A program made the position numbers and the translations under genes. The notes under the pieces are model-generated. The model was not told the DNA's origin. It made no database searches and was given only the letters and a program-made list of their open reading frames with translations. Shown here piece after piece: positions 8,974-32,629 of a stretch of 64,000 nt of DNA (the first letter of the stretch is position 1; each line of letters begins with the position of its first letter). Source of the DNA: Candidatus Angelobacter sp. (GTDB lineage: Bacteria; Acidobacteriota; Terriglobia; Terriglobales; Acidobacteriaceae); NCBI GenBank assembly GCA_035703825.1, contig DASSXL010000219.1, forward strand, positions 10,189 to 74,188. Direction: 5' to 3'.

Positions 8974-9006
8974 AGGCAACAACGAATAATTTTACGATCT
9001 ATCATT

Positions 9007-14523: not shown

Positions 14524-14559
14524 TCCGGCTGGTCCTCACGGGCCGGCCGGATTTGTTTT
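14524..14559 (+). terminator. Rho-independent terminator after the TolC-like gene
   Basis: 9 bp stem tccggctgg / ccggccgga (14524-14532 / 14543-14551) followed by tttgtttta. Confidence 0.7.
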
Positions 14560-15835: not shown

Positions 15836-15976
15836 AAGGCCCGGACGAGGGGCCTACGACGAAAGTGAAGGCCCTGTCTCGCTTGAGAAACTCTGGAACT
15901 CATCCAGCATCCTGATATATATTCTCTGCACGCCCCCAGTTGCTTCGCCCGATTTACATTCAATGGAGATAGGTCC

Positions 15977-18004
15977 ATGTCGCGTGCACCTGCTTTTGTC
16001 CTGTCGCTTCTCTTGATTTCCGCCTTAAGTCTTGCCGCCAAAGACAAGGATAAGGACAAAGAATCCCCAGGGGGATGGCTGCCCATCACCCAGCAGGACC
16101 TTGCGGTCAGGGAAGTGCCGCACGATCCCGGCGCAGATGCCATCCAGCTCTATATGAGCTATTACAAGGATGACGACGCGAAATTCATCTCCGTTTACAA
16201 GCGCATCAAAATCCTGCGCGAAGGGGCGTTGCAGCCAGAGAGGAAGCTGGTGGATGTGGAGATTCCCATTGAGCCCGGACAATCGTTCAAGGAACTGGCC
16301 GCCCGGACCATTCATCCTGACCAGAAAATCATTGAATTCACAGGGAAGCCGTTTGAAAAAGTGCTGATCAAAACAAGGGGCGTGAAATTCACAGCCAAGA
16401 CCTTCAGTTTGCCGGACGTCACGGTGGGCAGCATTATCGAATACCGGTACAAAGTTGAGTTGCCGCTGGGTGTGGTGAGTACCATTTCCGCATGGCCCGT
16501 CCAGGAAGATCTATTTACGGTAAAGGAAGACCTTCGTTTCCGGGCCTACCAGGGATTAGTGATGGTCCCCACCGAATGGACCAGCGTCGCCCCTAAATCG
16601 AAGGTTGCGTATTCTTACCTGAATCAGATTGACCTTAGCGTGCCGGAGAAGAAGCAGCCAGGCAATCTGATGGAGCTTCATCTGCAGAATGTCCCTAAAT
16701 TTGATGCTGAAGAGTACATGCCTCCGCATGACGATTTTCGTCCCGTCATCCTCTTCTACTATGGCGGCAGAGAGATGTCATCGCCGGAGGGCTTTTGGGA
16801 CGAATGGCAAAAGCTGATCACTGAATATGTGGAGAAATACATCGGCCACTCGCAGGAAATTTATGACGCGGCGGTGAAGGCCGTCGGCGGTGAAACCGAT
16901 CCGGAAAAGAAGCTGCGCAAGTTGTATGCGCGGGCCCAGCAGATCAGGAACCTCTCTTTTGAACGCGAGCGCACCTCGGAAGAAAAAAAACAGGAGCATC
17001 TGAAACGCAACACCAGCACGCAGGAAGTGCTGCAACGTGGCTATGGCACCTCATGGGAAGTGAATGTCGCATTTACGGCGCTGGCTCGCGCCGCCGGGTT
17101 TGAGGCCACGATGCTGGGAGTTTCGGAAAGAAAAAACCGCTCTTTTAACAAGATTATCCTGTGGCTCGGCCAGCTTGATGACAGCGCGGTCATGGTCAGG
17201 CTCGGCGGCAAGGATGTCATTCTGGATCCGGGAACGCGGTTCTGTCCGTTCGGTGTCCTGCGCTGGGAAAACACGGCCACCACGGCGCTGAAATTCAGCA
17301 AGACCGGCGGCGGTTTCATTACCACGCCGGAGCCGGAAAGTTCCTTGTTGCGCCGGACTGCTCATATGTCGCTGGGTGTGGATGGCGCATTGGCGGGCGA
17401 ACTTTCAGTCGACTTCAACGGCGAAGAAGCGCTGGCATACCGCCTGAATGCGCTGGACCAGGATGAGGCCGGCCGGCGCGAGAGCCTGGAAGATGAAGTG
17501 AAAAGCTGGCTTCCCGGCAATGCAGTGGTCAAGCTGCAAGAGGCGCGCGGCTGGGATTCCATGGACGGGCCGCTAACCGCCCGCTTCAAGATTGACATTC
17601 CCGGGTTTGCCTCGACGGCCGGAAAACGTATGGTTTCACCTTCATTCTTTCTTTCTACGCTGCAGAAAGACATGTTCACCAGCCAGGTCCGCCGGTATCC
17701 CATTAGCTTTCCCTACCCGTTTGCTGAAGAAGATGAGCTGATTACGAAATTGCCGGAAGGTTATGGCGTGGAAGCGCCGCCGTACCGCCGCAAAGCGGGC
17801 CTTGCCTATGCGGGTTATGAGATCTCATCCGCGGTGGAGGACCGCCAGCTTGTTACCAAGCGTAAGCTTCGTTTTGAAGGCTCGCTGGTTCCGCTGGAAA
17901 AGTATGAAGAGCTCAGGAACTTTTTCAGCGTGGTGCAGAAAGGCGATGGCGACCAGGCTGTCCTGCAGAAAGAACAAAATGAAAGCTCCCAGAACCAGAA
18001 TTAA
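15977..18004 (+). CDS. Secreted transglutaminase-like paralogue A1 (DUF3857/TGase-core/DUF3858-type architecture from memory; Cys position = Ser)
   Basis: Signal peptide; GGWLPITQQDL, FTGKPFEKV, GSIIEYRYK, YARAQQIRNLSFERERT, RGYGTSWEV..ALARAAGFEA, LDPGTRFCPFG, FFSVVQKGDGDQ. GGAGA lies upstream of the ATG. Confidence 0.8.
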   Translation: MSRAPAFVLSLLLISALSLAAKDKDKDKESPGGWLPITQQDLAVREVPHDPGADAIQLYMSYYKDDDAKFISVYKRIKILREGALQPERKLVDVEIPIEPGQSFKELAARTIHPDQKIIEFTGKPFEKVLIKTRGVKFTAKTFSLPDVTVGSIIEYRYKVELPLGVVSTISAWPVQEDLFTVKEDLRFRAYQGLVMVPTEWTSVAPKSKVAYSYLNQIDLSVPEKKQPGNLMELHLQNVPKFDAEEYMPPHDDFRPVILFYYGGREMSSPEGFWDEWQKLITEYVEKYIGHSQEIYDAAVKAVGGETDPEKKLRKLYARAQQIRNLSFERERTSEEKKQEHLKRNTSTQEVLQRGYGTSWEVNVAFTALARAAGFEATMLGVSERKNRSFNKIILWLGQLDDSAVMVRLGGKDVILDPGTRFCPFGVLRWENTATTALKFSKTGGGFITTPEPESSLLRRTAHMSLGVDGALAGELSVDFNGEEALAYRLNALDQDEAGRRESLEDEVKSWLPGNAVVKLQEARGWDSMDGPLTARFKIDIPGFASTAGKRMVSPSFFLSTLQKDMFTSQVRRYPISFPYPFAEEDELITKLPEGYGVEAPPYRRKAGLAYAGYEISSAVEDRQLVTKRKLRFEGSLVPLEKYEELRNFFSVVQKGDGDQAVLQKEQNESSQNQN

Positions 18005-18089
18005 CCAGCGAAATGGTCCGAGTTCTGGCCACATCGGCTTTGGTGATATATAGTTTGCGGACAAATCCCCCAAATTAGTCTTGAGGTGA

Positions 18090-20060
18090 ATGGTGAATCC
18101 CATGCGGTTGTTCATTGTGTGTGCGCTGTTGGCAGTTTCCGTGGTTCCAGCTTGCGCCCAGAAGGAAGATTGGCTTCCAGTCACGAAGCAGGACTTGGAT
18201 ATCAGAGAAGTTCCCAATAGTCCCGGTGCTGACGCGATACAGCTCTATTACGCCGACTTCATCAATGATGAGCAGCAAACAGAGTTTTTTTACCATCGAA
18301 TCAAAATCCTGAATGAAAGAGGCAATCGCCATGCCGATGTGGAGATCAGCATACCTCAGGACGGTTCAATCTCCGGACTAAAGGCACGCACCATTCATCC
18401 GGACGGCAAGATTATCGAATTCACAGGCAAGCCCTTTCAGAAGACGCTTATCAAGGGGCGTGGGATCAAGGTTCTGGCCAAGGCCTTTACTATGCCTGAT
18501 GTCGCCGTAGGCAGCATCATTGAGTACAAGTACAAAATAGATTGGCCTGGCATCATTACGGATAACTATTGGACCATTCAGCATGAACTGTATACCGTAA
18601 AGGAAAGCTTCCGCATGAAGGCTTATTCCGGCAGGTTGGAGGGCTTTGAAGGCGGCTACCAGGTGGCTGCCCTCTACTCTCATATGCCCAATAACATCAA
18701 GCCCCTGCAAAAAGGTGGCGGCTATGAGCTTGAGGTTACGAACATGCCGGCCTTTGAATCGGAAGGGTATATGCCTCCCGAAGAAGATCTGAAGCCACAA
18801 ATGCGGTTCTTCTATATTGGCACCGGTACCTCCACTCCTGAAAAGTTCTGGCAAGACGCCGGCCGGGGATGGAACGACGAAGTTGACCGTTTCATAGGCA
18901 ACCGCAAAGAGATCAGCCAGGCCGCTGCTCAAGCCATCGGAAATGAAACAGATCCTGACAAGAAACTTCAGGCGCTCTATGCCCGCGCCCAGCAGGTCAG
19001 GAACCTGACCTATGAACGCGAGCGGACTGAACAGGAACAGAAAAAAGAGAACCTGAAAGCGAACCAGAATGTGAACGATGTGCTGGCGCGCGGGGCCGGC
19101 ACCCGCGATGATATAACCCGGCTCTTTGTTGCCCTTGCGCGTGCCGGCGGTTTTGACGCGTCGATTGTGCGCGTGAGCAATCGCAAGGACAAATTCTTTG
19201 ACAAAGGCTTGCTCTCCAAACGGCAGCTTGATAGTGAGATTGCCATCGTCAATCAAGCCGGGAAAGATATTTATCTTGATCCCGGAACCAGGTTTTGTCC
19301 TTACGGTTATCTCCGCTGGATTCGTACTTCAACCATGGGAATCAAGCTGGACAAGAAAGGCGGCGCTTTCGTCACCGCGCCCGGCGCAGGTTATGACCAG
19401 GCCACCACGCGGCGGACCGCGGATATGGCCCTGAATGAAAACGGTGATCTAAAAGGCACGGTCCTTGTCAAATTTGAAGGCGGTGAGGCGCTGGAGCACC
19501 GGCTGGACGAATTGCTCACGGATGACGTTGGCAAGAAAAGCGATTTGGAAGATGAAGTGCGAGGCTGGCTCCCAGCGGGCGCTAACATCAAACTGGCAAA
19601 GGTTGAGGGCTGGGAAGCAGGCGGGAGCCCGCTCATAGCTACCTTCGAGGTTGAGATGGCCAGTTATGCTTCGGTTGTGGGGAAGCGTCTGCTGGTGCCG
19701 GCATATCTCTTTCAGGCCAGACAGATGGATGCGTTCAAGCATGTCGACCGCAAATTCCCCGTCTATTTCCCTTATGCGTTTGGTGAAGTTGATCGCGTTA
19801 ACATCAAAGTCCCGGCTGGATATACGGTGGAAACCGTTCCGCAGAAGCAATCCGCGCGCCTGCGTTACGCAGGGTACCAAAATCTGGTCCAGTTTGACGG
19901 TAAACAACTGGTCACGCAAAGGGTCTTGGAAATCAATGGCATCTTCTTCCGTTTGGAACTATATCCGGAAATGAAAGATTTTTTTGGGAAGGTCCGGGCC
20001 GGTGATGAACAGCAAGCCGTTCTGACGGGAGGCTCTTCCAATGCTCAAAAAAGCAATTAG
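18090..20060 (+). CDS. Secreted transglutaminase-like paralogue A2 (Cys position = Arg)
   Basis: Signal peptide; EDWLPVTKQDL, FTGKPFQKT, GSIIEYKYK, YARAQQVRNLTYERERT, RGAGTRDDI..ALARAGGFDA, LDPGTRFCPYG, FFGKVRAGDEQQ. Alternative start at 18102. Confidence 0.8.
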   Translation: MVNPMRLFIVCALLAVSVVPACAQKEDWLPVTKQDLDIREVPNSPGADAIQLYYADFINDEQQTEFFYHRIKILNERGNRHADVEISIPQDGSISGLKARTIHPDGKIIEFTGKPFQKTLIKGRGIKVLAKAFTMPDVAVGSIIEYKYKIDWPGIITDNYWTIQHELYTVKESFRMKAYSGRLEGFEGGYQVAALYSHMPNNIKPLQKGGGYELEVTNMPAFESEGYMPPEEDLKPQMRFFYIGTGTSTPEKFWQDAGRGWNDEVDRFIGNRKEISQAAAQAIGNETDPDKKLQALYARAQQVRNLTYERERTEQEQKKENLKANQNVNDVLARGAGTRDDITRLFVALARAGGFDASIVRVSNRKDKFFDKGLLSKRQLDSEIAIVNQAGKDIYLDPGTRFCPYGYLRWIRTSTMGIKLDKKGGAFVTAPGAGYDQATTRRTADMALNENGDLKGTVLVKFEGGEALEHRLDELLTDDVGKKSDLEDEVRGWLPAGANIKLAKVEGWEAGGSPLIATFEVEMASYASVVGKRLLVPAYLFQARQMDAFKHVDRKFPVYFPYAFGEVDRVNIKVPAGYTVETVPQKQSARLRYAGYQNLVQFDGKQLVTQRVLEINGIFFRLELYPEMKDFFGKVRAGDEQQAVLTGGSSNAQKSN

Positions 20061-20424
20061 CGCGCTCGTTCAAAATCCTGCGCACCGAGGAAAAGAATAC
20101 GCCCAGCACGAGGTTCCTTTGATGCTGAACCAAGAATCGAACAGCCAAAAAAGCTGTTTGCCCAGATCCTGCTGAAGAAAGCGAACTAGCCCGAACAGCA
20201 GCAGTCTGGATAGGACCTGGAATCCTGCAAAGGCTGCCAGGCTTGTTGCGAACCGCAATGCGGGTGGGATTTTCGCAGCCCCCTTTTGTAAGAAGCGATG
20301 AATGCTTTTCCTCATCGTCCGCGGAATGTGGAAACCCTCAAGACAGGATGGTATAGTCCGTTCTGGTATCCTCGCCGGATACTCCATTCCGGACACACGC
20401 AAGAACAAACGCAACGGTGACCTG

Positions 20425-22428
20425 ATGCGACTGCGCGGCCAGTTCTTTTTGCGGTTTATCTTTCTCGCGTTACCGGTGTTTTCCAGCGCGCAGAATTTGG
20501 ACTGGCTTCCAATCACCTCTCAGGACCTGAAAATCAATCAAGTTCCCGGCGCGCCCGGCGCTTCTGCCATCCAGCTTTATTACGCCGATTACATCGACGA
20601 CGAGGCGCAGACAGAGTTCTATTATCGCCGTATCAAGGTCCTGAACGACAAAGGGAACAGCTACGCCGACGTGGAGATTGTCATCCCGCCTGACGCTTCT
20701 ATTAGCGGATTGAAGGCCCGCACCGTCCATCCCGACGGGAAAATCATTGAATTTACCGGCAAGCCTTTTCAGAAAGTGATTGCCAAGGGCCGCGGCGTAA
20801 AGATTCTGGCCAAGGCCTTCACCATGCCTGAAGTCACTGTGGGCAGCATCATTGAATACAAGTACAAAGTGGATTTGCCCGGTATTTTTCTCGATAACTC
20901 GTGGACCATCCAGCACGATCTTTATACGGTGAAGGAAAGCTTTCGCATGAAGCCCTTTGGCGGCCTGCTGGAAGGCTTTGAGAAGGGGCACCAGGTGGCC
21001 GCGCTCTCTTCGCACATGCCGGACAATCTGAAGCCGCGGCAGACGGGCGGAGGCTATGAGCTGGAAGTCCAGAACATGCCTGCTTTTGTCGCGGAAGGCT
21101 ATATGCCTCCGGAAGAAGATTATCAGCCGCAGATCCGGTTTTTTTACGGAGGACGCGAGATCATCAGTCCGGAAAAGTTCTGGCAGGACGCGGGCCGCGG
21201 CTGGAACGACCTTGCCGAACGCTTTATCGGCAATCGGCGCGAGATAGCCCAGGAGTCTGCCCGCATCATTGGCGATGAGGCCAACTCCCTGCACAAACTG
21301 CGCCGGCTCTATGCCCGCGCGCAACAAGTCCGCAACCTTTCGTATGAGCGTGAGCGCACCGCGGAAGAGGAGAAAAGAGAGAATCTCAAGCCCGCGCAGA
21401 GCGCCGGGGACGTGCTTGATCGCGGCTACGGCGACCGTGATGACATCACCCGTTTTTTTGTGGCGATGGCCCGTGCCGCTGGATTTGAGGCTTCAATTCT
21501 GCGCGTCAGCAACCGCCAGGAGAGGTTCTTTGATCGCGGCCTGCTGTCCAGACGGCAGTTGGATGCCGAGATAGCGCAGGTTGATCTGGACGGGCAGAAC
21601 CTCTTCCTCGATCCCGGCACACGTTTTTGCCCCTTCGGGCTAGTGCGCTGGACGCGAACTTCTTCCATGGCGCTGAAGCTGGACAAAAAGGGCGGCTCGT
21701 TCATCAAAGTGCCTTCCGCCGGATACGAAAAGGCCATGGTGCGCCGCTCCGCGGAAATGGCGCTCACCGCCGATGGCTCATTGAAAGGCACAATCACCGC
21801 CCGGTTTGAAGGCGGTGAGGCGCTGGAACGGAGACTCGAGGCCGTTATAACCGACGAGGCCGGAAGAAAAGAGGCCCTGGAAGAGGAAGCCAAAGACTGG
21901 CTTCCCGGTGGCGCCTTGGTCAAGTTAACCGCCAGCCTGGGATGGGAAGGAAACGAGGAACCGCTGGTTGCCACCTTTGCCGTTGAGCTTCCGGCCTATG
22001 CTTCCGTCGCCGGCAGAAAGCTGCTGGTGCCTGCTGACGTGTTTCAGTCCAGGCAAATGGATACCTTCAAGCATTCAGAGCGCAAATACCCAGTGTATTT
22101 TCCCTATGCTTTCGGAGAAGCAGACCGCATTGTGATCCAGGGAGTTCCGGGCTACACGGCTGAAACGGTTCCCACCCAACAGTCCAGTAGTCTGGCATAC
22201 GCTACCTATTTCAATGAGTCCCGCTTCGATGGCAAACAACTGGTCACGGAAAGGGTATTGCAGGTGAATGGCATCTTCTTTCAACCAGAGCGCTATGCTG
22301 AGATAAAGGATTTCTTCAGGAAAGTACAGCTCGGCGACGAACAACAAGTGGTCTTTCAAGGTAGCCCTGATCGCGCAGGCGGGATACCTTCTTCATCTCA
22401 AGCCCGACCAATAGAGGGCTTGCTCTAA
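20425..22428 (+). CDS. Secreted transglutaminase-like paralogue A3 (Cys position = Arg)
   Basis: The track ORF starts at 20302, but the signal peptide MRLRGQFFLRFIFLALPVFSSAQ begins at ATG 20425. Motifs as in A2, which looks like the closest paralogue by eye. Divergent C-terminal tail. Confidence 0.8.
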   Translation: MRLRGQFFLRFIFLALPVFSSAQNLDWLPITSQDLKINQVPGAPGASAIQLYYADYIDDEAQTEFYYRRIKVLNDKGNSYADVEIVIPPDASISGLKARTVHPDGKIIEFTGKPFQKVIAKGRGVKILAKAFTMPEVTVGSIIEYKYKVDLPGIFLDNSWTIQHDLYTVKESFRMKPFGGLLEGFEKGHQVAALSSHMPDNLKPRQTGGGYELEVQNMPAFVAEGYMPPEEDYQPQIRFFYGGREIISPEKFWQDAGRGWNDLAERFIGNRREIAQESARIIGDEANSLHKLRRLYARAQQVRNLSYERERTAEEEKRENLKPAQSAGDVLDRGYGDRDDITRFFVAMARAAGFEASILRVSNRQERFFDRGLLSRRQLDAEIAQVDLDGQNLFLDPGTRFCPFGLVRWTRTSSMALKLDKKGGSFIKVPSAGYEKAMVRRSAEMALTADGSLKGTITARFEGGEALERRLEAVITDEAGRKEALEEEAKDWLPGGALVKLTASLGWEGNEEPLVATFAVELPAYASVAGRKLLVPADVFQSRQMDTFKHSERKYPVYFPYAFGEADRIVIQGVPGYTAETVPTQQSSSLAYATYFNESRFDGKQLVTERVLQVNGIFFQPERYAEIKDFFRKVQLGDEQQVVFQGSPDRAGGIPSSSQARPIEGLL

Positions 22429-22690
22429 AGCAAACGTCTGGAATGAGTTGAGGGCTGCGGCCTGCCACGCGCCGGAGGGACAGAGCAAGCTGGGCCCCGA
22501 AACTCAGGCGGTTGGGAGCGAATCGGCAAAGTTAGAACACCTTAAGTTCTAAATAATTACAGCCCTCCACGAGCAGGAACTCTGGTCAAATCTCCCGTTT
22601 TGGTGTATATCTTTTCTTCCCCCTTGTGCCCACGTCCCAAAACTTGGGATTTCTATGAACTTAACTAGTCGAGGTTTTTAGTCGAGGTTA

Positions 22691-24733
22691 ATGAGGTTTT
22701 TTATGACGCGAATCGCGCGATATTTTTCGCTGGCCGTTTGCTTTTTGGTCTCGCTTGGCTCATTGGCACAAAAGGAAGACTGGCTGCCGGTAACGCCCCA
22801 GGACCTGCAATACAAGGAGGTGCCGGGCAACAAGGGCGCTTCGGCGGTAAGGCTCTACTATGCCCAGTACATCAATGACAATAACTCGTCCTGCTTTGTT
22901 TATGAGCGGATCAAGATCCTGAATGAGAAGGCGCTTGCGGGTGGCAATAGCTATGCGGATGTCGAAATTCCGATTCTGACTTTCGGCGGCATTGTCGAAA
23001 CCATCACCGAACTGAAGGCGCGCACGATTAAGCCGGACGGCTCTATTGTTGAATTTTCGGGCAAACCCTTCGAAAAAGTCGTTTTTAAGGGCAGGGGAGA
23101 CAAATTCTCTGTTCAGGCTTTTAGTATGCCCGCTGTCGAAGTCGGCAGCATCATTGAGTACAAATACCGGGCAGTGGTTTCAACCCCCGGTTTAGAGTTT
23201 GTCAAGGTCTTCGCGCGCGACTCATGGGACATCCAGAGAGAACTCTTCACGGTGAAAGAGAGCCTTTACTATCAGCCATTCGGTGGAACTGCTTTCCAGA
23301 GCAACGCCAGGCCCCAGTTTTATTTTGATGGCGCTCGGGTCAGCCGTGTGAGCATGAACCTGAAAGAAAAACCCAAGGAAACCGGCAATGATGTTTCGCT
23401 GGAGTTGACGAATGTCGCCGCCTTTGAGCGGGAAGAGTACATGCCTCCCGAAGACATTTACAAACCCAGCGTAATCTTCTTTTATGGCCGCAAGGGCAAT
23501 CCTTCTGTGGATAAGGAATGGGAGGACATCGGAAAGGACCGCTACGAAGAGCTTGAAACATTTATGGCGGCCAATAAAGGTGTGAAGGAAGCCGCCCAAG
23601 CCGCTATCGGTGGGGAGACCGAGCCGGGAATGAAATTGCGCAAGCTTTATGAGCGGGCCCAGGCGATCCGGAACCTTACCTTTGAGCGCGAGCGTACCAA
23701 GGAAGAACGCAAGGCTGAAAACATACAAAAGAACAACGGCGTAGGCGACGTGCTGGCCCATGGCTACGGCTACGAAGATGGCATCACCTATCTATTTGTC
23801 GCCATGGCGCGCGCCGCCGGTTTTGATGCTTCCGTCGTCCAGGTTTCTGATCGCAAAAGGCGCTTCTTTGTAAAAAACTGGACATCGTTGCGGCAGCTTG
23901 AGAGCGAAATTGCCGTCGTGAACCTTAACGGCAGTGAGATCTATCTTGAGCCGGGTATCCGTTTTTGTCCTTATGGGACTGTTCGCTGGAACCATACCGT
24001 CACTGAGGGATTGAAGCTGGAGAAGAAAGGCGGTTCGTTTGTGAAGGCGCCGCCGCTCACCTATGACAAGTCCGTTACCCGTCGCACGGCAACTATGTCT
24101 ATGGGTGAAGATGGAACGCTGAAGGGCGATGTCGTTCTTGAATTCGAGGGAACTGAAGCGCTCGAACACCGCCTGGATGCGATTGACAGCGATGATGCCG
24201 GACGCAAAAAAAACCTGGAGGACGAACTCAAGCAATGGCTGCCTACAGGCGCCATTGTCAAAATGGCAGTTGCGCAGGGATGGGACACTACTGGCGGTCC
24301 GCTGGTGGCGCGCTTCAACGTCGAGTTGCCGAATTATGCCACTCTGGCCGGTAAGCGGCTCCTGATCCCGGCTTTTCTCTTTCTGTCGAAGGAAAACCGG
24401 GCTTTTGCGCATTCCCAACGCAAGTATCCCGTCTATTTCCCCTATCCTTTCACGGATTCTGATTCCGTGACCATCAAGGTCCCTTCGGGCTTCACCCTGG
24501 AGAGCGTTCCCACCGCGCAGGACGCCAAGCTGGGCGGCACTGCCCGCTACCAAAACGTGAGCAACTTTGATGGAACTCAATTGGTCAGCCAGCGGCAACT
24601 GGCCTTCAACGGAATATATTTTGATGTGGATAAATATTCGGAATTGAAGTCTTTCTTCGGTAAAGTCCAGGCCGGCGACGAACAGCAAGCCGTACTGCAT
24701 GGAGGTAACGTCAGTGCTCAAAAAGGCAATTAA
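22691..24733 (+). CDS. Secreted transglutaminase-like paralogue A4 (Cys position = Glu)
   Basis: Signal peptide; EDWLPVTPQDL, FSGKPFEKV, GSIIEYKYR, YERAQAIRNLTFERERT, HGYGYEDGI..AMARAAGFDA, LEPGIRFCPYG, FFGKVQAGDEQQ. Confidence 0.8.
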   Translation: MRFFMTRIARYFSLAVCFLVSLGSLAQKEDWLPVTPQDLQYKEVPGNKGASAVRLYYAQYINDNNSSCFVYERIKILNEKALAGGNSYADVEIPILTFGGIVETITELKARTIKPDGSIVEFSGKPFEKVVFKGRGDKFSVQAFSMPAVEVGSIIEYKYRAVVSTPGLEFVKVFARDSWDIQRELFTVKESLYYQPFGGTAFQSNARPQFYFDGARVSRVSMNLKEKPKETGNDVSLELTNVAAFEREEYMPPEDIYKPSVIFFYGRKGNPSVDKEWEDIGKDRYEELETFMAANKGVKEAAQAAIGGETEPGMKLRKLYERAQAIRNLTFERERTKEERKAENIQKNNGVGDVLAHGYGYEDGITYLFVAMARAAGFDASVVQVSDRKRRFFVKNWTSLRQLESEIAVVNLNGSEIYLEPGIRFCPYGTVRWNHTVTEGLKLEKKGGSFVKAPPLTYDKSVTRRTATMSMGEDGTLKGDVVLEFEGTEALEHRLDAIDSDDAGRKKNLEDELKQWLPTGAIVKMAVAQGWDTTGGPLVARFNVELPNYATLAGKRLLIPAFLFLSKENRAFAHSQRKYPVYFPYPFTDSDSVTIKVPSGFTLESVPTAQDAKLGGTARYQNVSNFDGTQLVSQRQLAFNGIYFDVDKYSELKSFFGKVQAGDEQQAVLHGGNVSAQKGN

Positions 24734-26678
24734 CACGACTTTTCTTCTTGCTCTCTTTATCAGTCTTTCCAGCTTGGCCCAGGCTGAAGTTCCGGAATGG
24801 TTGCGGAATCTGGCTCGCCAGCCCGCCAAAACTTATGCGGATGACGTGAATGCCGCAATCCTTTTGGATGACAACGTCACCACCGTAAAGGAAAATGGCG
24901 ACATCGTTCACCATGGGCGTCGGGCCTGGCGGGTCCTGCGTCCCGAGGGCAGAAATCGCTATTCGGGGTTTGCGCGGGAATACAACGCCGACTCCAAGGT
25001 CAACTATCTCCATGGCTGGAGCATTACCAGCAAGGGCCAGGAATACGAAACGAAATCGAGCGACATCATCGAGCAGAATATCAGTACCTTTGAGGTCTAT
25101 TCCGATGCCAAGATCAAGGGGGCCCGCGTGCCGGGGGTCGATGTCGGGACCGTCGTGGGTTTCGAATACGAAACCCTGGAGCATCCGTATACTTTTGATG
25201 ATGTTTGGAGATTTCAAGAAACTGAGCCCGTGGAGCACTCCCACTATGAATTGCATCTGGCATCAGGCTGGCGATTCAAGACGGAATGGATGAACCACAA
25301 GGAAGAGAAGCCGACTGAAGAAGGCGGAGCGATTCAGTGGCAGCTCGCTGACATTCCCCGTATTGAAAATGAGCCGCAACGGCCGCCTGAGTCTGGGCTG
25401 GCCGGCAGTGTGGTGTTTACTTTCTTTAACGACAAGATACCTTCCAAAAGCTACCGGAACTGGTCAGAGCTTGGTACCTGGTTCACGCAGCTTTCTTCCG
25501 CTGTCAGAGATTCAAGCCCGGCCTTGACCCAAAAGGTGCAGGAACTGGCCCCGGCGAATCTTCCCCTGGTTGAGCGCATCAAAGCCTTGGCCGGCTTTGC
25601 TCAGCGTGACGTCCGCTACGTCGCCATTTCGATTGGGGTCGGCGGCCTTCGTCCCCACAATGCGACGGATATCTTCAATCACCGTTATGGCGATTGCAAA
25701 GACAAAGCCACCGTTCTGAGCTCCATGCTGGCGCAGATCGGCGTAAAGTCCTATTACATCATCGTGAATGACGAGCGCGGTGTGGTCACCAAGGATACTC
25801 CCGCTAACCCTAACGGGTTTAACCATATGATTCTGGCCATCGCTCTGCCTGCGGCCAGCTATTCCAAGCCGCTGCCCGCCATGTACGAGCATCCCAAACT
25901 CGGGCATTTGCTGATCTTTGATCCCACGAATGAATATGTGCCCTTTGGACAGATTCCTCCCTACGAACAGGACAATTATGGCCTGCTGGTGGGAGAGCAG
26001 GGTGGGGAACTGATCAACATGCCGCTCAGCCTGCCGGAAGCCAATGGTGTAAGGCGCAGTGCCAAGCTAAAGCTGCTGCCCGATGGCACATTGCAAGGCG
26101 AGGTCGAAGAAAGATATACAGGCTTCTATGCCTACCGAGGCAGGTTATTTCTCCAGCACGAATCCGAAAATGATCGCAAGAAGATGATGGAGCGTCTGGT
26201 GGCTAGTTCTCTAGGCAGTTTCCAACTCGAAAAGTATGAGCTGGTCAATGCTGATGATATCGATCAGGACCTTATCATCCGCTTTAACTTCAGCGCGGCC
26301 CATTACGCCAAGAACGCCGGGCCCATGCTGCTGGTCCGTCCGCGCGTGCTGGGCGAACTGGCTGGGCCGTGGGACCCCAACAAGCCCCGCCACTACGCTT
26401 ACGAGTTCCGCGGGCCTTTCCTGGACCGCGACACCGTGGAGATCTCCCTGCCGGAGGGTTTCAAGGTCGACGAGCTGCCTGATCCAGCCAAGGCCACCTT
26501 CCCGTTTGCGGAATATGTGAGCAAGACGGAAAGCGCGGAGGGCGTGCTGAAATACACGCGGGAATACAAGCAGACGGCCACGCAGGTATCCATGGACCAG
26601 ATGGACCAGCTCAAGAAGCTCTTCGGCCAGATCAACCTGGACGAAAAGAACATGGCTGTGCTGAAGCGCGTGAACTAG
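24714..26678 (+). CDS. Secreted transglutaminase-like paralogue B1 (Cys/His/Asp pattern retained)
   Basis: GGAGG at 24701-24705 sits 8 nt before GTG 24714 (MLKKAINTTFLLALFISLSSLAQA); an in-frame ATG alternative lies at 24699. It overlaps the A4 stop (24733). Motifs RYGDCKDKATVLSSMLAQIGV (TGC at 25695-25697), GFNHMILAI and LLIFDPT. Confidence 0.8.
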   Translation: MLKKAINTTFLLALFISLSSLAQAEVPEWLRNLARQPAKTYADDVNAAILLDDNVTTVKENGDIVHHGRRAWRVLRPEGRNRYSGFAREYNADSKVNYLHGWSITSKGQEYETKSSDIIEQNISTFEVYSDAKIKGARVPGVDVGTVVGFEYETLEHPYTFDDVWRFQETEPVEHSHYELHLASGWRFKTEWMNHKEEKPTEEGGAIQWQLADIPRIENEPQRPPESGLAGSVVFTFFNDKIPSKSYRNWSELGTWFTQLSSAVRDSSPALTQKVQELAPANLPLVERIKALAGFAQRDVRYVAISIGVGGLRPHNATDIFNHRYGDCKDKATVLSSMLAQIGVKSYYIIVNDERGVVTKDTPANPNGFNHMILAIALPAASYSKPLPAMYEHPKLGHLLIFDPTNEYVPFGQIPPYEQDNYGLLVGEQGGELINMPLSLPEANGVRRSAKLKLLPDGTLQGEVEERYTGFYAYRGRLFLQHESENDRKKMMERLVASSLGSFQLEKYELVNADDIDQDLIIRFNFSAAHYAKNAGPMLLVRPRVLGELAGPWDPNKPRHYAYEFRGPFLDRDTVEISLPEGFKVDELPDPAKATFPFAEYVSKTESAEGVLKYTREYKQTATQVSMDQMDQLKKLFGQINLDEKNMAVLKRVN

Positions 26679-26781
26679 CTCTGCAATTGCGCCATGCCCC
26701 TTAATGCAGCCGGCGCGATCAAAGAGCAAACTGCTTGTTGCAGATGCAACGGCACGCGGTTCGTAAAGGAGTGACCACCAA

Positions 26782-28746
26782 ATGCGCAAAGACAGAATTA
26801 GCGCGACATTCTTCGTCTTTGTGTTACTCAGCGCGGTCTCACATCCGGCGTCCGCTTCGGTGCCGGACTGGCTGCGCGGCGCAGCCCAGCAGTCCACCAA
26901 GACCTATGCCAGTGACGTCAATGCCGTAGTCCTGTTCAGTGAAACTGAAGCTACGGTCAAGGACAGTGGCGAAACCGTGACCCGCGAGCGCCGCGTGATC
27001 AAGGTATTGCGTCCAGAAGGCCGCCATGAGGCGTTCCAGGGAGTGCCTTTCGACGAAGAAACCCGGCTGAACTATTTCAAGGGCTGGAGCATCAGCGCTA
27101 GGGGCGTGGAATACGAAGCCAAGAAGGAAGATGTTGCTGAGGTCGGCGCAGGCGAAGGCTATGAGGTGTACTCTGACGCCAAAGCCAAGGTGATGCGGAT
27201 TCCGGGGGTGGATGTCGGCACTGTCGTAGGGATCGAATGGGAACAAAAGAAGCATCCATATACTTTTGAGGACCATTGGTTTTTCCAGTTCCACCAGCCC
27301 GTGGCGCGGGCCCGATTTATTTTGCACCTGCCCGCCGGCTGGGAATACCGTGCCACTTGGCTTCATTACGCGGAGCAGGCGCCCCAAATTGAAGGCAATA
27401 CTTATGTTTGGGCGCTCTCTGATCTTCCCCGGATCGAGACAGAGAACGAGATGCCGCACTGGCGCGCCCTGGCAGGCCAGCTCATCGTTACATATTTTTC
27501 AGAGAAGACCAGGGGACGCTCCTACTCAAGTTGGAGCGATTTCGGAGCGTGGTATGGCCAGCTCACCTCCGGTCTGCGCGATCCTTCGCCTGCCCTGCAG
27601 CAGAAAGTACAGGAGCTGGCCCCGGCTTCTCTGCCACTGCTTGATCGCATCAAGGCCCTGGCCCGCTTTGCCCAGCGTGATGTCCGTTATGCGGCCATCG
27701 AAATCGGGATCGGAGGACTGCAGCCGCATCCGGCGAGCCAGGTGTTCAGCAATCGCTACGGCGACTGCAAGGACAAAGCCACCGTGCTGAGCGCGATGCT
27801 GGCGCAGATCGGGGTCAAGTCCTATTACATACCGGTTCACACCGACCGCGGAATTTACACAGAGAAGACCCCGCCGACCATGGGCTTCAATCATGTGATT
27901 CTTGCCATCCAGGTGCCCGAGGCCAGTTTTAAGGGTTCATTTCCAGCCCTGTATGAACATCCCAAGCTGGGCCATCTGTTGATCTTCGATCCCACATCCA
28001 GCGTCGTCCCTCTTGGCCAGATCCCTTCTTATGAGCAGGACAACTATGGGCTGCTGGTGACCGATCAGGGTGGCGAGCTGATCCACCTGCCGCTCAGCTC
28101 TCCTGAACTGAACAAGATCTCGCGTACCGCCAGGCTGTCATTGCTGTCCGATGGAAGTCTGCAGGGCGAGGTGACCGAGGTGCGCAGCGGCTGGCTGGCT
28201 GCGGCGGGGCGCTATGCGTTTGAGCATCAGACGATTGCCGACCGGCGCAAGATTCTGGAGCGCTTTCTCGGCCGCATGATGGGCAATTTCCAGCTGGACA
28301 GCGTGGACGCGGAGAATCTTGACGACATTGAGAAGGACCTGGTGATTCACTACAAATTCACGGCCGATCATTATGCCAAGAATGCCGGATCGCTGTTGCT
28401 GGTGCGTCCACGGGTATTGGGAGAGAAGCTTGGGAGCCTGGATATGACTAAGCCGCGTCATTACCCCTACGAGTTTGACGCGCCCACCCTGCAAACTGAC
28501 GTTTTCGAATTCAACCTGCCTGACGGTTACAAGATCGATGAGCTGCCCGAGGCTGCCAAGGCAACCTTCGCCTTCGGAGAGTACAACAGCAGGATTGAAA
28601 ACGCAGGCACGCTGCTGAAGTACAGCCGTGAATACAAGATCAACGCCGTGAGAGTCCTGCCGGAGAAAATTGACGATCTGGGCAAATTCTTCCACCGGAT
28701 CAATCAGGACGAACGAAACATGGCTGTGCTCAAGAAGGCCAATTAG
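26782..28746 (+). CDS. Secreted transglutaminase-like paralogue B2 (Cys/His/Asp pattern retained)
   Basis: Signal peptide; VPDWLRGAAQQ; RYGDCKDKATVLSAMLAQIGV (TGC at 27766-27768), GFNHVILAI, LLIFDPT. Collinear with B1 throughout. Confidence 0.8.
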   Translation: MRKDRISATFFVFVLLSAVSHPASASVPDWLRGAAQQSTKTYASDVNAVVLFSETEATVKDSGETVTRERRVIKVLRPEGRHEAFQGVPFDEETRLNYFKGWSISARGVEYEAKKEDVAEVGAGEGYEVYSDAKAKVMRIPGVDVGTVVGIEWEQKKHPYTFEDHWFFQFHQPVARARFILHLPAGWEYRATWLHYAEQAPQIEGNTYVWALSDLPRIETENEMPHWRALAGQLIVTYFSEKTRGRSYSSWSDFGAWYGQLTSGLRDPSPALQQKVQELAPASLPLLDRIKALARFAQRDVRYAAIEIGIGGLQPHPASQVFSNRYGDCKDKATVLSAMLAQIGVKSYYIPVHTDRGIYTEKTPPTMGFNHVILAIQVPEASFKGSFPALYEHPKLGHLLIFDPTSSVVPLGQIPSYEQDNYGLLVTDQGGELIHLPLSSPELNKISRTARLSLLSDGSLQGEVTEVRSGWLAAAGRYAFEHQTIADRRKILERFLGRMMGNFQLDSVDAENLDDIEKDLVIHYKFTADHYAKNAGSLLLVRPRVLGEKLGSLDMTKPRHYPYEFDAPTLQTDVFEFNLPDGYKIDELPEAAKATFAFGEYNSRIENAGTLLKYSREYKINAVRVLPEKIDDLGKFFHRINQDERNMAVLKKAN

Positions 28747-28801
28747 CAATCGGGAGACTCGGCGCAAGTTCCCGGGCAACCCGCGGTTCCGGAGTTTTTG
28801 A

Positions 28802-30751
28802 ATGTCGTTGTCAAATTGCGTAAGAAAGGCATGGCTGGCGGCCTTGTTGTTGTTTCCGCTGCTGTGCGCGGGCCAGGGGCGCCCCTGGCTGCCTGTTGAT
28901 CCCAAAGACCTGCAGATGAAGGAGCTGCAGCAGATTCCCGGGGCCCAGGCGTCCCTCCTTTACTACGCCGACGAAATCGACGATACCAGCCATAACGAAT
29001 TCCTCTACTCCCGGATCAAGATCTTCAGTGACGGCGGCAAGCAGTATGCCAACGTCGAGATACCTTTGCTCGAGAAATTCTCGGTTGAGAACCTGGCCGC
29101 CCGCATCATTCACGCCGACGGAAAGATCGTGGAGACGGCAGTGCACCCGTTTGAAAAGGTGGTCCTCAAAGGAAAAGGTCTGCGAGTGCGCGTGCAGGCC
29201 TTTACTCTCGCGGATGTAACGGCGGGCGACATTATTGAGTATCAATATCAGCTCCATCAGGGCGACAAGGGGTTGTACCACCATCATTGGGAGGTGCAGC
29301 ACGACCTCTTTGCTGTGAAGGAACATTTTCTTTTCAAATACAACAAACAATACTCGGTCCGATGGCTGCCCTCCGCCGGCCTTCAGCAAAGCCCCCAGCA
29401 CGATCTGAAGGCCAACACCCTGGAGATGGATTCCGAGAATGTGCCGCCCTTTGAAGCGGAAGAGCAAATGCCGCCGGTGGCGGCCTACAAGTGGGAGGTC
29501 AAATTTTTCTATACCTCGCCATTCATGAGTTCTCCTTCCTCTTACTGGTATGAGATTGGACGAGGCGTCTCCCGCTGGCTTGATCAATACGTGGGCAATG
29601 CCAAGGAGATCGCCAGTGAAGCCGCGGCGGTCGTCGGGACTGAAACTGACCCTGAGAAGAAGCTGCGCAAGCTGTATGCCCGGGCCCAGGAGATCAGAAA
29701 CCTCAGCTACGAACGTCATCGCACGGAGAAAGAGCGGAAGAACGAAGAGCTCAAGGAAAACAAGAATGCCGTCAACGTTCTCCACCATGGTTACGGGGAT
29801 CGACATGAGATCACCCGCCTTTTTGTTGCCCTGGCCAGAGGCGCAGGCTTCACGGCATCGGTTGTTTTCGTGTCCAGCCGCGAGTCAAGGTTGTTCGATC
29901 GCGAGGTCCTCTCTTTTTCGCAATTGGATTCTGAAATCGCGCGCGTGCGGCTCAATGGCAAGGACATTTTCCTTGATCCAGGAACCCGCTTCTGTCCTTA
30001 CGGGCTGATGCGCTGGATGCGTACCGGAACGGCTGCCATGGACATGGCCGATCCCGGACAATTCATTTCTACACCGGGCGCGCCGGAGGACAGCGCCATC
30101 ATCGAGCGAAGCGCCGAGCTGAAGCTGGATACTGAGGGAGCGGTCAAGGGTGAAGTGCGGATCGAGTTCGAGGGCCTGGAAGCGCTCGAGCGTCGCCTCT
30201 CCGCGCTGGATACGGATGACGCCGGCCGCAAGAAAGAGCTGGAGGACGAAGTAAAGCTGTGGCTCCCCGCCAATGCCAAAGTGGAGATGGAAGATGTCGT
30301 CGGATGGGAAAAGGAGTACGAGCCGCTGACCGCCGTCTTCAAGGTTGAAGTGCCGGAGTTTGCCTCCGCAGCGGGCAAGCGGCTGATGGTTCCTACCGCC
30401 TTGTTTCAACCCAAGCAGAAACGCGTGTTGAAGAGTGGAACCAGGAGGTTCCCGGTCTATTACAACTACGCGTTCAGTGAAAATGATCACATGAACCTGC
30501 AACTGCCGGAAGGCTACGGCCTTGAGACGTTGGCTTCGCCGCAGACCGCCGCCACCAAATTTGCCCGATACACGACCAATGCGGCCGCCACCGGGCCATA
30601 CGTGAATCTTGACCGGTCGCTCAGGTTCAACGGGGTCTTCTTCCAGCCGGACCGTTACGAGGAATTGAGGCTTTTCTTTGCCAAGGTCCAGGCTGGAGAT
30701 GAACTGCAAACCGTTGTACGGCAATCGCCCGCTGAATCCAAGGCGCACTAA
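28802..30751 (+). CDS. Secreted transglutaminase-like paralogue A5 (Cys position = Arg)
   Basis: Signal peptide; RPWLPVDPKDL, GDIIEYQYQ, YARAQEIRNLSYERHRT, HGYGDRHEI..ALARGAGFTA, LDPGTRFCPYG, FFAKVQAGDELQ. Confidence 0.8.
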   Translation: MSLSNCVRKAWLAALLLFPLLCAGQGRPWLPVDPKDLQMKELQQIPGAQASLLYYADEIDDTSHNEFLYSRIKIFSDGGKQYANVEIPLLEKFSVENLAARIIHADGKIVETAVHPFEKVVLKGKGLRVRVQAFTLADVTAGDIIEYQYQLHQGDKGLYHHHWEVQHDLFAVKEHFLFKYNKQYSVRWLPSAGLQQSPQHDLKANTLEMDSENVPPFEAEEQMPPVAAYKWEVKFFYTSPFMSSPSSYWYEIGRGVSRWLDQYVGNAKEIASEAAAVVGTETDPEKKLRKLYARAQEIRNLSYERHRTEKERKNEELKENKNAVNVLHHGYGDRHEITRLFVALARGAGFTASVVFVSSRESRLFDREVLSFSQLDSEIARVRLNGKDIFLDPGTRFCPYGLMRWMRTGTAAMDMADPGQFISTPGAPEDSAIIERSAELKLDTEGAVKGEVRIEFEGLEALERRLSALDTDDAGRKKELEDEVKLWLPANAKVEMEDVVGWEKEYEPLTAVFKVEVPEFASAAGKRLMVPTALFQPKQKRVLKSGTRRFPVYYNYAFSENDHMNLQLPEGYGLETLASPQTAATKFARYTTNAAATGPYVNLDRSLRFNGVFFQPDRYEELRLFFAKVQAGDELQTVVRQSPAESKAH

Positions 30752-30799: not shown

Positions 30800-32629
30800 A
30801 TGATGGAGAAGGAATCTTCTATGGCGGATCACTTGAACAAAAAGAAAGACCAGAGCGGCATTGCGGAAAACCCGATTGCCGAGATCTTTGAAGGTCGTCA
30901 CCCGGCCGAGTCGGAAAAGCGCTGGGCTGAAACCACGCTGGCCAAAACGCTGGAGAAAGCGCCGGAGAAGCCGATTGGCGCGGCCACCGGCGTCAATCTG
31001 GACGAAAGCGGTCACGCTCAGTTCACAACCATCAGCGGCGTGCCCATCCGCCGGCTTTACACGCAAGCCGATCTGCCCGAGGACTGGAACTACGAGAAAT
31101 ATCTTGGCTATCCCGGCCAGGCGCCCTACACGCGCGGCATTCATTCCAGCGGCTATCGAGGCCGTCTCTGGACCATGCGCCAGTTTTCCGGCTTCGCCTC
31201 TCCGGAGGAAACCAACGAGCGTTACAAATACCTGATGGCCAGTGGCGGCGGTGGACTCTCAGTGGCTTTCGATCTGCCTACGCTCATGGGCTATGACTCT
31301 GATCATGCAGCGAGTGAGGGCGAAGTGGGCAAGTGCGGCGTGGCCATCGATTCGCTGGAAGACATGGAGATCCTTTTTAACGGAATCGACCTTGAAAAAA
31401 CCACCGTCTCCATGACGATCAACTCGCCCGCCTCCGTTCTGTGGGCCATGTATCTGGTGGTGGCGGAAAAGCAGGGCGCGGACTGGAAGAAAGTCTCAGG
31501 CACGCTCCAGAATGACATTCTGAAGGAATACATCGCGCAAAAGGAATATATCTACCCACCCGCGCCCTCGATGCGCCTGGTGATCGATACGTTTGAGTTC
31601 GGCTCCAAATTCACGCCCAAGTTCAACTCTATTTCCATCAGCGGTTACCACATTCGTGAAGCCGGTTCTACCGCGCTTCAGGAATTGGCATTCACCATTT
31701 ATGACGGCGTTGAATACGTGGAATGGGCGCGCCGCCGCGGCCTGGACGTGGACGACTTTGGCCCGCGCCTGAGCTATTTCTTCAACTCGCACAGCGACTT
31801 TTTTGAAGAGATTGCCAAGTTCCGTGCCGCGCGCAAGATCTGGTACCGCCTGATGAAAGACCGCTTCGGCACCAAGCAGGAGCGCACGTGGCTGATGCGT
31901 TTCCATACGCAGACCGCCGGTGTCTCGCTCACGGCGCAGCAGCCTCTCAATAACATCGCTCGTGTGGCCTTGCAGGGACTGGCCGCCGTGCTTGGCGGCA
32001 CGCAGTCTCTCCACACCGATTCCTACGATGAAGCCCTGGCGCTGCCCACGCAGGAAGCCGCGCGCATCGCACTGCGCACGCAGCAGATCATCGCCTATGA
32101 ATCCGGCGTGGCCCAGACCGTTGATCCGCTGGCCGGCTCTTACTTCCTGGAAAAGCTGACGCTCGACATGGAGAAGGGCGCGTTTGACTACTTCGAGCGC
32201 TTGGACGCCATGGGCGGCATGGTCAAGGCCATCGAAAACGGCTTCCCGCAGAAAGAAATTGCTGAAGCTTCTTACCAGTATCAGCGCGCCGTCGAGGCCA
32301 AAGAGAAGATTGTGGTTGGCGTAAATGATTTTGCGGTCGAAGAAAAGCAGATGGATACGCTCTACATTGACGAATCCGTGGCCCGCCACCAGACGGCTAA
32401 GCTGAAAGCTCTGCGAGCCCGCCGCAACAATGACGAAGTCCGCCGCACGCTGGACGCCCTGAAGAAAGCCGCAGCGCAGGAACCCGTTGTCCGCTCCGAT
32501 GGCCGCATCAGCGACGCCAACACTATGCCGTTCATCATCGACTGTGTCCGCGCCTACGCCACCGTGGGCGAAATCTGCCAGGCGTTGCGTGAAGTCTATG
32601 GGACATATGAAGAGGTGAGCATCACGTAG
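30800..32629 (+). CDS. Methylmalonyl-CoA mutase family, large catalytic (substrate-binding TIM barrel) subunit without a B12-binding domain
   Basis: [32 protein letters not shown]...[34 protein letters not shown] and HTQTAG are typical acyl-CoA mutase motifs. The ORF ends before any DxHxxG domain. Confidence 0.85.

Follow-up and report, generated by a model that had tools for sequence, protein, structure and literature searches.

What do seven adjacent paralogues of one exported, transglutaminase-like protein family do in a single bacterial locus? The question is raised by a 64,000-nucleotide (nt) stretch of a Candidatus Angelobacter sp. contig (DASSXL010000219.1; hereafter, the window). Candidatus Angelobacter and its relatives are reported to form a widely distributed genus of soil Acidobacteria (PMC9723581). 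Seven paralogous open reading frames (ORFs) of 649–708 amino acids (aa) span positions 15977–30751 on the plus strand of the window in the order A-A-A-A-B-B-A (A1 to A4, B1, B2 and A5). An earlier, sequence-only reading of this DNA had taken them for a tandem array of secreted transglutaminase-like paralogues belonging to a dedicated cell-envelope system; their coordinates, order, homology and signal-peptide-like N-termini were borne out. The answer that we favour, holding the explanation as a whole to be about evenly poised between right and wrong, is that the region encodes Sec-exported three-domain proteins of the DUF3857/transglutaminase-like family (papain fold, resembling the structure 3KD4) that come in two functionally different kinds.

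Predicted active and inactive members of one protein family

The two kinds differ at the catalytic centre. In the B proteins a Cys-His-Asp triad lies within the motifs YGDCKDKAT (Cys), GFNH[MV]ILA or F[ND]H[MV]ILA (His) and IFDPT or FDPT (Asp), and the three residues are invariant in 18 B sequences. We predict B1 and B2 to be active thiol enzymes, peptidases or amidases and less likely cross-linking transglutaminases. A1–A5 have other residues at both the Cys and the His position (Table 1); the Asp is kept, except in A4. These five fall into a large sister clade from which both catalytic residues have disappeared. Of 1.84 billion representatives, 15,094 matched a profile of the A proteins at E ≤ 1e-3 and 2,208 did so at E ≤ 1e-30, and the best 150 of them (50%-identity clusters, score at least 490 bits) all lack the Cys, with a highly variable residue in its place, and mostly keep the Asp. 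The label “transglutaminase-like” thus holds for all seven proteins as a statement on fold and family, but as a statement on enzymes it fits B1 and B2 only.

Loss of the active site has not been followed by decay. Compared with the nearest orthologues, dN/dS is 0.05–0.13 for all seven genes (best orthologue and dN/dS: A1, 83% identical, 0.12; A2, 86%, 0.11; A3, 75%, 0.08; A4, 80%, 0.12; B2, 84%, 0.07; A5, 79%, 0.07). The A genes are therefore not decaying, and encode pseudoenzymes under purifying selection. Among the most conserved parts of A is the segment round the retained Asp, LDPGTRFCPxGxxRW, the remainder of the former cleft. With Cys and His lost, but this remainder and many other positions strongly conserved, the A proteins would still be doing something, most likely binding. 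A redundant expansion without division of labour, in which the A copies are degenerating duplicates, would account for the many tandem copies of similar length and for the decay of one member (psiB, described below). Yet it is contradicted by the selection data, which cover all five A genes, by the more than 150 clusters at 50% identity of the A clade, all intact and full length, and by the saturation of synonymous sites between paralogues, so that the copies are ancient and retained; we find it scarcely credible.

All seven proteins are built on one plan. Pairwise identity is 43–65% among the A proteins, 55% between B1 and B2, and 18–22% between A and B, in an all-against-all comparison as the sequence-only reading had proposed. 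An hhalign comparison of the A profile with the B profile spans 616 columns (probability 99.8%, E 4e-29), so that homology extends along the whole of all seven proteins. The architecture suggested in that reading, DUF3857 followed by a transglutaminase core and DUF3858, stood in its first part, partially in its second and not in its third. DUF3857 (PF12969, gathering score 24.6 bits) is found in all seven, with 31.8–81.7 bits in A2, A3, A4, A5, B1 and B2, and 22.9 bits, just under the gathering score, in A1, which is 43–46% identical to the other A proteins. Transglut_core (PF01841, clan Peptidase_CA, gathering score 23 bits) matches each of the seven partially, over only about positions 3–77 of 108; scores lie above gathering for A1 (25.6 bits), A2 (24.3 bits) and A5 (27.1 bits), and under it for A4 (22.9 bits), B2 (22.2 bits), A3 (21.3 bits) and B1 (19.2 bits). 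DUF3858 (PF12970, gathering score 27 bits) was not detected, the C-terminus of A2 reaching E 0.027 and 15 bits and the C-terminal domain of B1 giving no match at E ≤ 10. NCBIfam holds no model that matches any of the seven. The common architecture on which the reading had been made to depend, DUF3857 plus a transglutaminase-like core, is nevertheless present throughout the array.

Sequence searches of the PDB with A2, B1 and the B profile returned nothing meaningful, and fold comparison alone worked. AlphaFold monomer models of B1 (pLDDT 78, pTM 0.73) and A2 (pLDDT 66.6, pTM 0.48) both have 3KD4 as their best PDB match in Foldseek (B1, E 6e-28, TM 0.73 normalised to target length; A2, E 1e-16), and both display a papain/transglutaminase-like core. 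Weaker matches include 3ISR with both models, transglutaminase 2 with B1, and Rad4, PNGase and arylamine N-acetyltransferases with A2. M1-aminopeptidase and OST1 chains turn up for B1 as well; we read these as matches to its N-domain. 3KD4 (BDI_1141 of Parabacteroides distasonis, a “putative protease” whose crystal structure was released in 2009) is the structural representative of the DUF3857 plus transglutaminase-like combination. It shares with B1 and A2 an N-terminal DUF3857 beta-sandwich, the papain/transglutaminase-like core and a C-terminal beta domain, the last of these aligning structurally despite the failure of the DUF3858 model. Unlike the array proteins, to which it is 11–12% identical in sequence, it is about 150 residues shorter, and no inactive paralogues or gene pairs have been reported for it; it is itself uncharacterised.

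Enzyme folds that have turned to binding are known from elsewhere. Erythrocyte protein 4.2, compared with animal transglutaminases, and Rad4/XPC, compared with PNGase (Rad4 and PNGase being the structural matches of A2 named above), have kept the fold, lost the catalytic Cys and taken on binding or scaffold roles. Unlike A, these proteins are eukaryotic, cytoplasmic or nuclear, and are not encoded beside or coupled with active relatives. EnvC and NlpD, periplasmic proteins with degenerate LytM domains that activate the amidases AmiA/B/C, illustrate an inactive relative of a hydrolase fold serving as envelope partner or regulator of an active hydrolase. Their fold is unrelated, however; the activators did not arise as paralogues of the enzymes, nor are the two encoded as a coupled pair.

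Each of the seven N-termini combines a basic n-region, a hydrophobic core (12-aa hydropathy 2.25–3.08) and a small-x-small site, and looks like a Sec type I signal peptide. An envelope location is on record for one family member, a 648-aa DUF3857 protein, predicted to be periplasmic, in the vesicle proteome of Tannerella forsythia (PMC10682907). The motifs by which the sequence-only reading had recognized the two types are all real, although several of the A motifs are less general than claimed: WLP[IV]xxxDL and RNL[ST][FY]ER[EH]RT occur in all five A proteins, GSIIEY[KR]Y and LDPGTRFCP[FY]G in four, and FTGKPF[EQ]K and FFxKVQxGD[EQ] in three. All four B motifs occur in both B proteins.

Taking the longest ORFs, the intergenic gaps are, in array order, 85, 241, 262, -35, 103 and 55 nt. 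With the likely starts of A3 (20425) and B1 (GTG at 24714), the second gap becomes 364 nt and the overlap of A4 and B1 20 nt, in agreement with the 55–364 bp and single overlap noted before. For A3, the internal start at 20425 is favoured by a promoter-like element that falls within the longest ORF. An independent Logan contig from another sample (L163) is collinear with window positions 20407–30435 at 97.65% identity and reproduces the order A3-A4-B1-B2-A5, which rules out an assembly artefact as source of the array; its gene calls give a 667-aa product for A3 and the 654-aa form of B1.

The overlapping junction between A and B genes

How could the two kinds of paralogue belong together? An overlap was found specifically where an A gene is followed by a B gene. 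Of 73 A-to-B junctions, 51 show an overlap of exactly 20 nt and 59 one of 14–20 nt, with a GGAGG inside the Gly-Gly codons of A and the B start about 8 nt downstream. Gaps separate 46 of 47 A-to-A and 27 of 27 B-to-A junctions, leaving an overlap in 1 of 74 overall. In the window, A4 and B1 show the same geometry if B1 starts at GTG 24714, with GGAGG 8 nt upstream and an overlap of 20 nt. As read from these sequences, the basic unit consists of two genes, A and B, with the Shine-Dalgarno sequence and start codon of B embedded in the final codons of A.

The unit recurs well beyond the window. In 76 related loci, nearly all of them from Candidatus Angelobacter or Terriglobia metagenome-assembled genomes, the layout is truA on the minus strand, a TolC-like outer-membrane efflux protein (OEP) gene, (A)n-B-(A)m and the methylmalonyl-CoA mutase gene mcm, n being 1–4 and m 0–2; in most of them the gene translationally coupled to B is an orthologue of A2 (subfamily a38). 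More distant A representatives form A-to-B or A-A-to-B arrangements in other genomic contexts (L078, L079, L081, L082). Among 80 metagenome loci that were retrieved by B-specific motifs only, and whose B proteins are 38–79% identical, all 55 of the B genes whose upstream sequence reaches 1.5 kb or more follow a Cys-less A, and 48 of 69 A-to-B junctions overlap. In all, the pairing was found in over 100 related loci. The possibility raised beforehand, that the array might prove a widely conserved locus with an assigned function, is thus half realized, in that conservation is seen but the locus still lacks an assigned function.

We propose that B, a thiol enzyme that is exported, works together with its catalytically inert paralogues, the A proteins, a proposal that in our judgement could fall either way. 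A and B would be made together by translational coupling at the overlapping junction and would act as a complex outside the cytoplasm, in which B would supply the chemistry and A, without catalysing anything itself, would contribute recognition of the substrate, regulation or anchoring. Additional A genes, which have promoter-like elements of their own, would provide alternative partners. Domain architecture, loss of catalytic residues, purifying selection, the coupled junction and its generality, the relic and the variable composition are shown by the sequences, whereas the physical complex, the part played by A, the chemistry and the substrate are inferred.

The same genes might instead act independently, B as a free-standing exported enzyme and A as non-enzymatic binding or structural envelope proteins, like protein 4.2, with the coupling only ensuring co-expression. 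Most A genes in arrays are uncoupled to any B and have promoter-like elements of their own, A subfamilies mix with several B subfamilies, and B2 stands without an A, all as independence would have it. It does not sit well with an A preceding every one of the 55 distant B genes, with an overlap that is specific to the A-to-B junction, a pattern typical of fixed-ratio subunits, or with the former active-site region being the best-conserved part of A. We regard independence as unlikely, though not negligibly so.

A hint on the chemistry of the proposed A-B partnership may come from the distant loci. In another clade, in 11 of the 23 metagenome loci with enough flanking sequence, a gene for an OPT oligopeptide transporter lies divergently beside the A-to-B pair, and the B proteins of these loci are 40–65% identical to one another. 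The transporter gene, in L110, L121, L123, L124, L129, L135, L138, L145, L147, L153 and L154, is usually divergent and 100–300 nt away. We take this adjacency as modestly suggestive of a connection with the uptake of peptides and of a peptidase role; if meaningful, it would bear on the harvest of protein nitrogen by Acidobacteria in soil.

Several points weigh against the partnership reading. B2 has no coupled A in the window. Genes of the a38 type pair with three B subfamilies (B6, B3 and B1), so that strictly cognate partners are not to be expected, and the A-to-B coupling would be accounted for by co-expression alone. The signal peptides are signal-peptide-like by a heuristic, having been judged by eye and hydropathy only. 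The Transglut_core matches of B1 and B2 lie under the Pfam gathering score, and the A2 model is only moderately confident. The promoter-like elements were inferred from consensus resemblance and conservation and are not mapped transcription starts. Finally, the Angelobacter clade shows no such OPT neighbour, and where the adjacency occurs it may reflect synteny and nothing more.

Some details of the gene ends were noted in passing. B2 is the only intact B among about 160 loci that has no A directly upstream; it lies 103 nt beyond the end of B1, with an AAGGAG ribosome-binding site of its own. The ends of the B genes (26658–26678 and 28726–28746; for example GTGCTCAAGAAGGCCAATTAG, encoding VLKKAN-stop) consist of nearly the same nucleotides as the start of B1 at 24714–24734 (GTGCTCAAAAAGGCAATTAAC, VLKKAIN), one 1-nt indel apart, and in another frame the same string encodes the A tail SAQKGN-stop. 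This near-identity could be a trace of how the overlapping junction originated, or a recombination point. A conserved C-terminal sorting motif, K-x-N-COOH, was considered and rejected, as the A tail is constrained by the overlapping B start and the final Asn of B is confined to the Angelobacter clade. In L013 (13956–15958) and L061 (11898–13908), two or three ORFs in succession stand in place of one A or B gene, either as pseudogenes or through frameshift errors of assembly.

Old subfamilies, a relic gene and a variable locus

Seven intact genes make this the largest array among the roughly 160 loci examined, complete arrays elsewhere having 1–5 genes. The simple local seven-fold expansion assumed in the sequence-only reading does not hold. 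Clustering reveals old, position-specific subfamilies: a7 (the A1 type) is always the first gene after the OEP gene and a38 (A2, A3) comes next, a26 (A4) stands immediately upstream of a B1-type gene in 7 loci, and B3-type genes (B2) are followed by a1 (A5) in 8 loci. Each gene of the window has an orthologue elsewhere at 75–86% identity, and synonymous sites between the window paralogues are saturated. Separate orthologues for each subfamily and saturated dS between paralogues rule out recent duplication in situ.

The array once had an eighth member. The spacer between A2 and A3 contains a relic, psiB, of a deleted B gene, which keeps the ribosome-binding site, the ATG and MLKKAI and, by frame analysis, overlaps the end of A2 by 20 nt; it also keeps a fragment matching B residues ~78–100 and the last ~25 codons, ending LKKAN-stop. 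By blastn it matches B genes of L003 (90% over 49 nt), L012/L014 (89% over 35 nt) and L005 (22 of 22 nt). The window array looks like a concatenation of three locus variants, A1-A2-psiB, A3-A4-B1 and B2-A5, in the fixed position that the locus occupies between mcm and the gene for the TolC-like protein. Single variants are found in related Candidatus Angelobacter: a7 a38 B6 in L003, a38 a26 B1 in L026 or L004, and a38 B3 a1 in L005 or L019.

Genomes with an mcm at least 97% identical to that of the window differ in array content, their A and B proteins being at most 86% and their OEP 54–89% identical. The locus thus forms an island that evolves fast and varies in content while its site stays fixed, this content arising either by differential loss or by exchange between strains. 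The DNA repeats of the region all reflect coding-level similarity of the paralogues, and no intergenic repeat or mobile-element signature was found among them.

Such variability invites a comparison with toxin/antidote loci: B could be an enzyme harmful to competitors or to the own envelope and A its decoy or inhibitor, with the cassettes varying in an arms race. Gene content at the fixed site does vary among close relatives, a B gene has been lost (psiB), and enzyme and non-enzyme are tightly co-produced. Of the two, however, B is better conserved, and purifying selection is strong on A and B alike. Their export signals are of the ordinary Sec kind, with no secretion-system or polymorphic-toxin features, and A2, B1, OEP and the neighbouring PD40 protein gave no match at E ≤ 0.01 in PADLOC-DB, which covers anti-phage defence. 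Moreover, A is as large as B and encoded upstream, unlike known immunity proteins. We consider such a role very improbable.

Returning to A as partner of B, we offer a wider and more tentative view, possible but on balance doubtful. The A-to-B pair may represent a widespread, hitherto undescribed class of exported enzyme-pseudoenzyme heteromers in Acidobacteriota, in which dead A proteins, exchangeable for one another, would steer or gate a single thiol hydrolase, B. The fixed site would be a cassette store whose modules are gained, concatenated and lost between close relatives, tuning which envelope or environmental proteins are cut or cross-linked.

The proteins themselves are already known as an annotated, uncharacterised DUF3857/transglutaminase-like family. 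As the sequence-only reading had supposed, the family has no assigned function: in the library searched, we found DUF3857 and DUF3858 only in passing mentions and no functional study of the family, no paper pairing “transglutaminase-like” with “pseudoenzyme”, and no functional study under 3KD4, Acidobacteria or Angelobacter. What appears to be new is the split of the family into live and dead members, the near-universal translational coupling of a dead to a live copy, and the modular, variable arrays. An array of paralogues of a domain of unknown function (DUF) thereby becomes a testable model, with live and dead clades, coupling almost without exception and dead copies that multiply. It predicts that B is expressed with the A upstream of it, that A and B form a complex, that activity depends on Cys333, and that A sets the target. 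Thousands of homologues were found, mostly in public metagenomes; if true, the model would supply a bacterial, extracytoplasmic example of paralogous pseudoenzyme partners and a route to function for a family of that size.

Flanking genes and transcription signals

Does the array belong to a larger system? The sequence-only reading had placed it in one dedicated system with the two genes upstream, for the TolC-like OEP and a PD40 propeller protein (Table 1). Comparison of the loci sets the two apart and weakens this view. The layout of truA, OEP, array and mcm is conserved in Angelobacter-clade loci, the OEP gene lying directly upstream on the same strand in all 41 that reach that far, and mcm follows the array in most related loci, at 88–98% identity to the mcm of the window. 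The PD40 gene is not conserved: no homologue was found in 76 related loci, and it forms an insertion of ~1.3 kb, between the OEP terminator and the region upstream of A1, relative to the closest relative L003, where the flanking DNA is contiguous.

Table 1 Features of the array and its surroundings (window positions)
Feature	Position	Strand	Description
TolC-like outer-membrane efflux protein (OEP)	12333..14501	+	722 aa; Pfam OEP E 8e-41; sub-threshold TolC/NodT NCBIfam matches
Intrinsic-terminator-like hairpin and T-run	14524..14551	+	directly after OEP gene; 12-bp stem, 9 GC pairs
PD40/TolB-like beta-propeller protein	14918..15835	+	signal peptide; Pfam PD40 E 4e-8
Promoter-like element upstream of A1	15887..15923	+	GAAACTCTGGAAC...GATATATAT; read from sequence; resembles conserved element upstream of A4
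A1	15977..18004	+	exported DUF3857/transglutaminase-fold pseudoenzyme; Cys to Ser, His to Asp; subfamily a7
Promoter-like element upstream of A2	18020..18054	+	TGGCCA-17-TATAGT
A2	18090..20060	+	pseudoenzyme; Cys to Arg, His to Ser; subfamily a38
psiB	20041..20189	+	149 nt; relic of deleted B gene, eighth array member, in 364-nt spacer after A2
Promoter-like element upstream of A3	20323..20357	+	TGGAAA-17-TATAGT with TG; inside longest-ORF version of A3
A3	20425..22428	+	pseudoenzyme; Cys to Arg, His to Ala; subfamily a38; ORF open from 20302
Conserved promoter-like element upstream of A4	22577..22611	+	GAACTCTGGTCAAA-N11-TGGTGTATATC; core invariant in 8-locus alignment
A4	22691..24733	+	pseudoenzyme; Cys to Glu, His to Ser, Asp to Glu; subfamily a26; partner translationally coupled to B1
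B1	24714..26678	+	predicted active thiol enzyme; likely start GTG 24714; longer ORF from ATG 24699
B1 triad, Cys333	25695-25697	+	numbered from ATG 24699
B1 triad, His376	25824-25826	+	numbered from ATG 24699
B1 triad, Asp408	25920-25922	+	numbered from ATG 24699
B2	26782..28746	+	second predicted active enzyme; subfamily B3
B2 triad, Cys329	27766-27768	+	
B2 triad, His371	27892-27894	+	
B2 triad, Asp403	27988-27990	+	
A5	28802..30751	+	pseudoenzyme; Cys to Arg, His to Ser; subfamily a1
Methylmalonyl-CoA mutase (mcm)	30800..32629	+	Pfam MM_CoA_mutase E 6e-221; housekeeping flank, downstream locus edge

OEP could still export or anchor something that the array proteins process, as with LapG in the LapA/LapE system, so that array, OEP and PD40 would form one envelope system. 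Its adjacency across the clade speaks for this, as does the pace of evolution: OEP is 54–89% identical to its orthologues where the adjacent mcm is 88–98% identical, so OEP evolves fast, and both OEP and A/B evolve much faster than the flanking mcm and truA. LapG, an exported, periplasmic cysteine protease of the transglutaminase fold with a Cys-His-Asp triad, which acts on an adhesin held in a TolC-like outer-membrane channel, sets a precedent. However, LapG is small and single-domain and belongs to a different Pfam family, and the array proteins have no LapG-family (BTLCP) Pfam match. To our knowledge, LapG has no pseudoenzyme partner. Of the components of a LapG-type system, the array locus has only the OEP; it lacks an adhesin, an ABC transporter and a c-di-GMP receptor. 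LapG has been listed together with 3KD4 (PMC4866520).

Further observations oppose a TolC-centred system. A strong intrinsic terminator, a hairpin of -10 kcal/mol or below followed by a T-run, stands after the OEP gene in 37 of the 41 loci, and no OEP was found beside A-to-B pairs in the more distant genomes examined; this conserved terminator and the distant loci led us to reject one operon of OEP and array. No gene for a transporter, a membrane-fusion (adaptor) protein or an adhesin was found in the locus, where the neighbours are housekeeping genes (truA, mcm, methyltransferase, HhH-GPD), and OEP is thus not part of a TolC-dependent efflux or type I secretion operon co-transcribed with transporter and adaptor. 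With the PD40 insertion unique to the window, we rate the single envelope system as distinctly unlikely. OEP is probably a syntenic neighbour in a separate transcription unit, and a functional link to the array is unproven. The protein is unusually long and has a low-complexity N-terminus of ~110 residues and a Gly/Ala-rich insert.

Promoter-like elements of the form TGGnnA-17-TATAnT precede A1, A2 and A3, and none precedes B1, B2 or A5. The region upstream of A2 is conserved before A2 orthologues in L003, L005, L006, L008, L009 and L053. The element upstream of A4, written as the pattern GAACTCTGGyCAAA-N11-TGGTGTATAT, matches the window once against 0.02 matches expected, and the exact pattern recurs upstream of A genes in seven other loci (L004, L008, L011, L023, L038, L050 and L057). 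From these signals, the likely transcription units are OEP, A1, A2, A3 and A4-B1-B2-A5, each of the first four on its own. An Rfam search found no RNA family in the window. The A4 element holds an invariant GGAACTCTGG just 5′ of its -35-like hexamer, a conservation in excess of what a bare promoter needs, and this string could be a regulator-binding site.

Two further observations concern the surroundings of such arrays. TonB-dependent-receptor-like genes (CarboxypepD_reg plus OMP_b-brl_4) lie within a few kb of three distant A-to-B arrays (L078, 14716–18225; L079, 17436–20792; L082, 18012–21359). Genes of this kind are very common in such genomes, and we judged their adjacency uninformative as a functional clue, as it may be due to chance. 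In the window itself, positions 8001–11193 have 46% G+C, compared with ~57% elsewhere, and contain two ORFs with no Pfam match (8284–8973 and 9007–9735) followed by a gene for an HNH_repeat (homing-endonuclease-associated) protein (10300–11193); this segment is possibly a foreign insertion.

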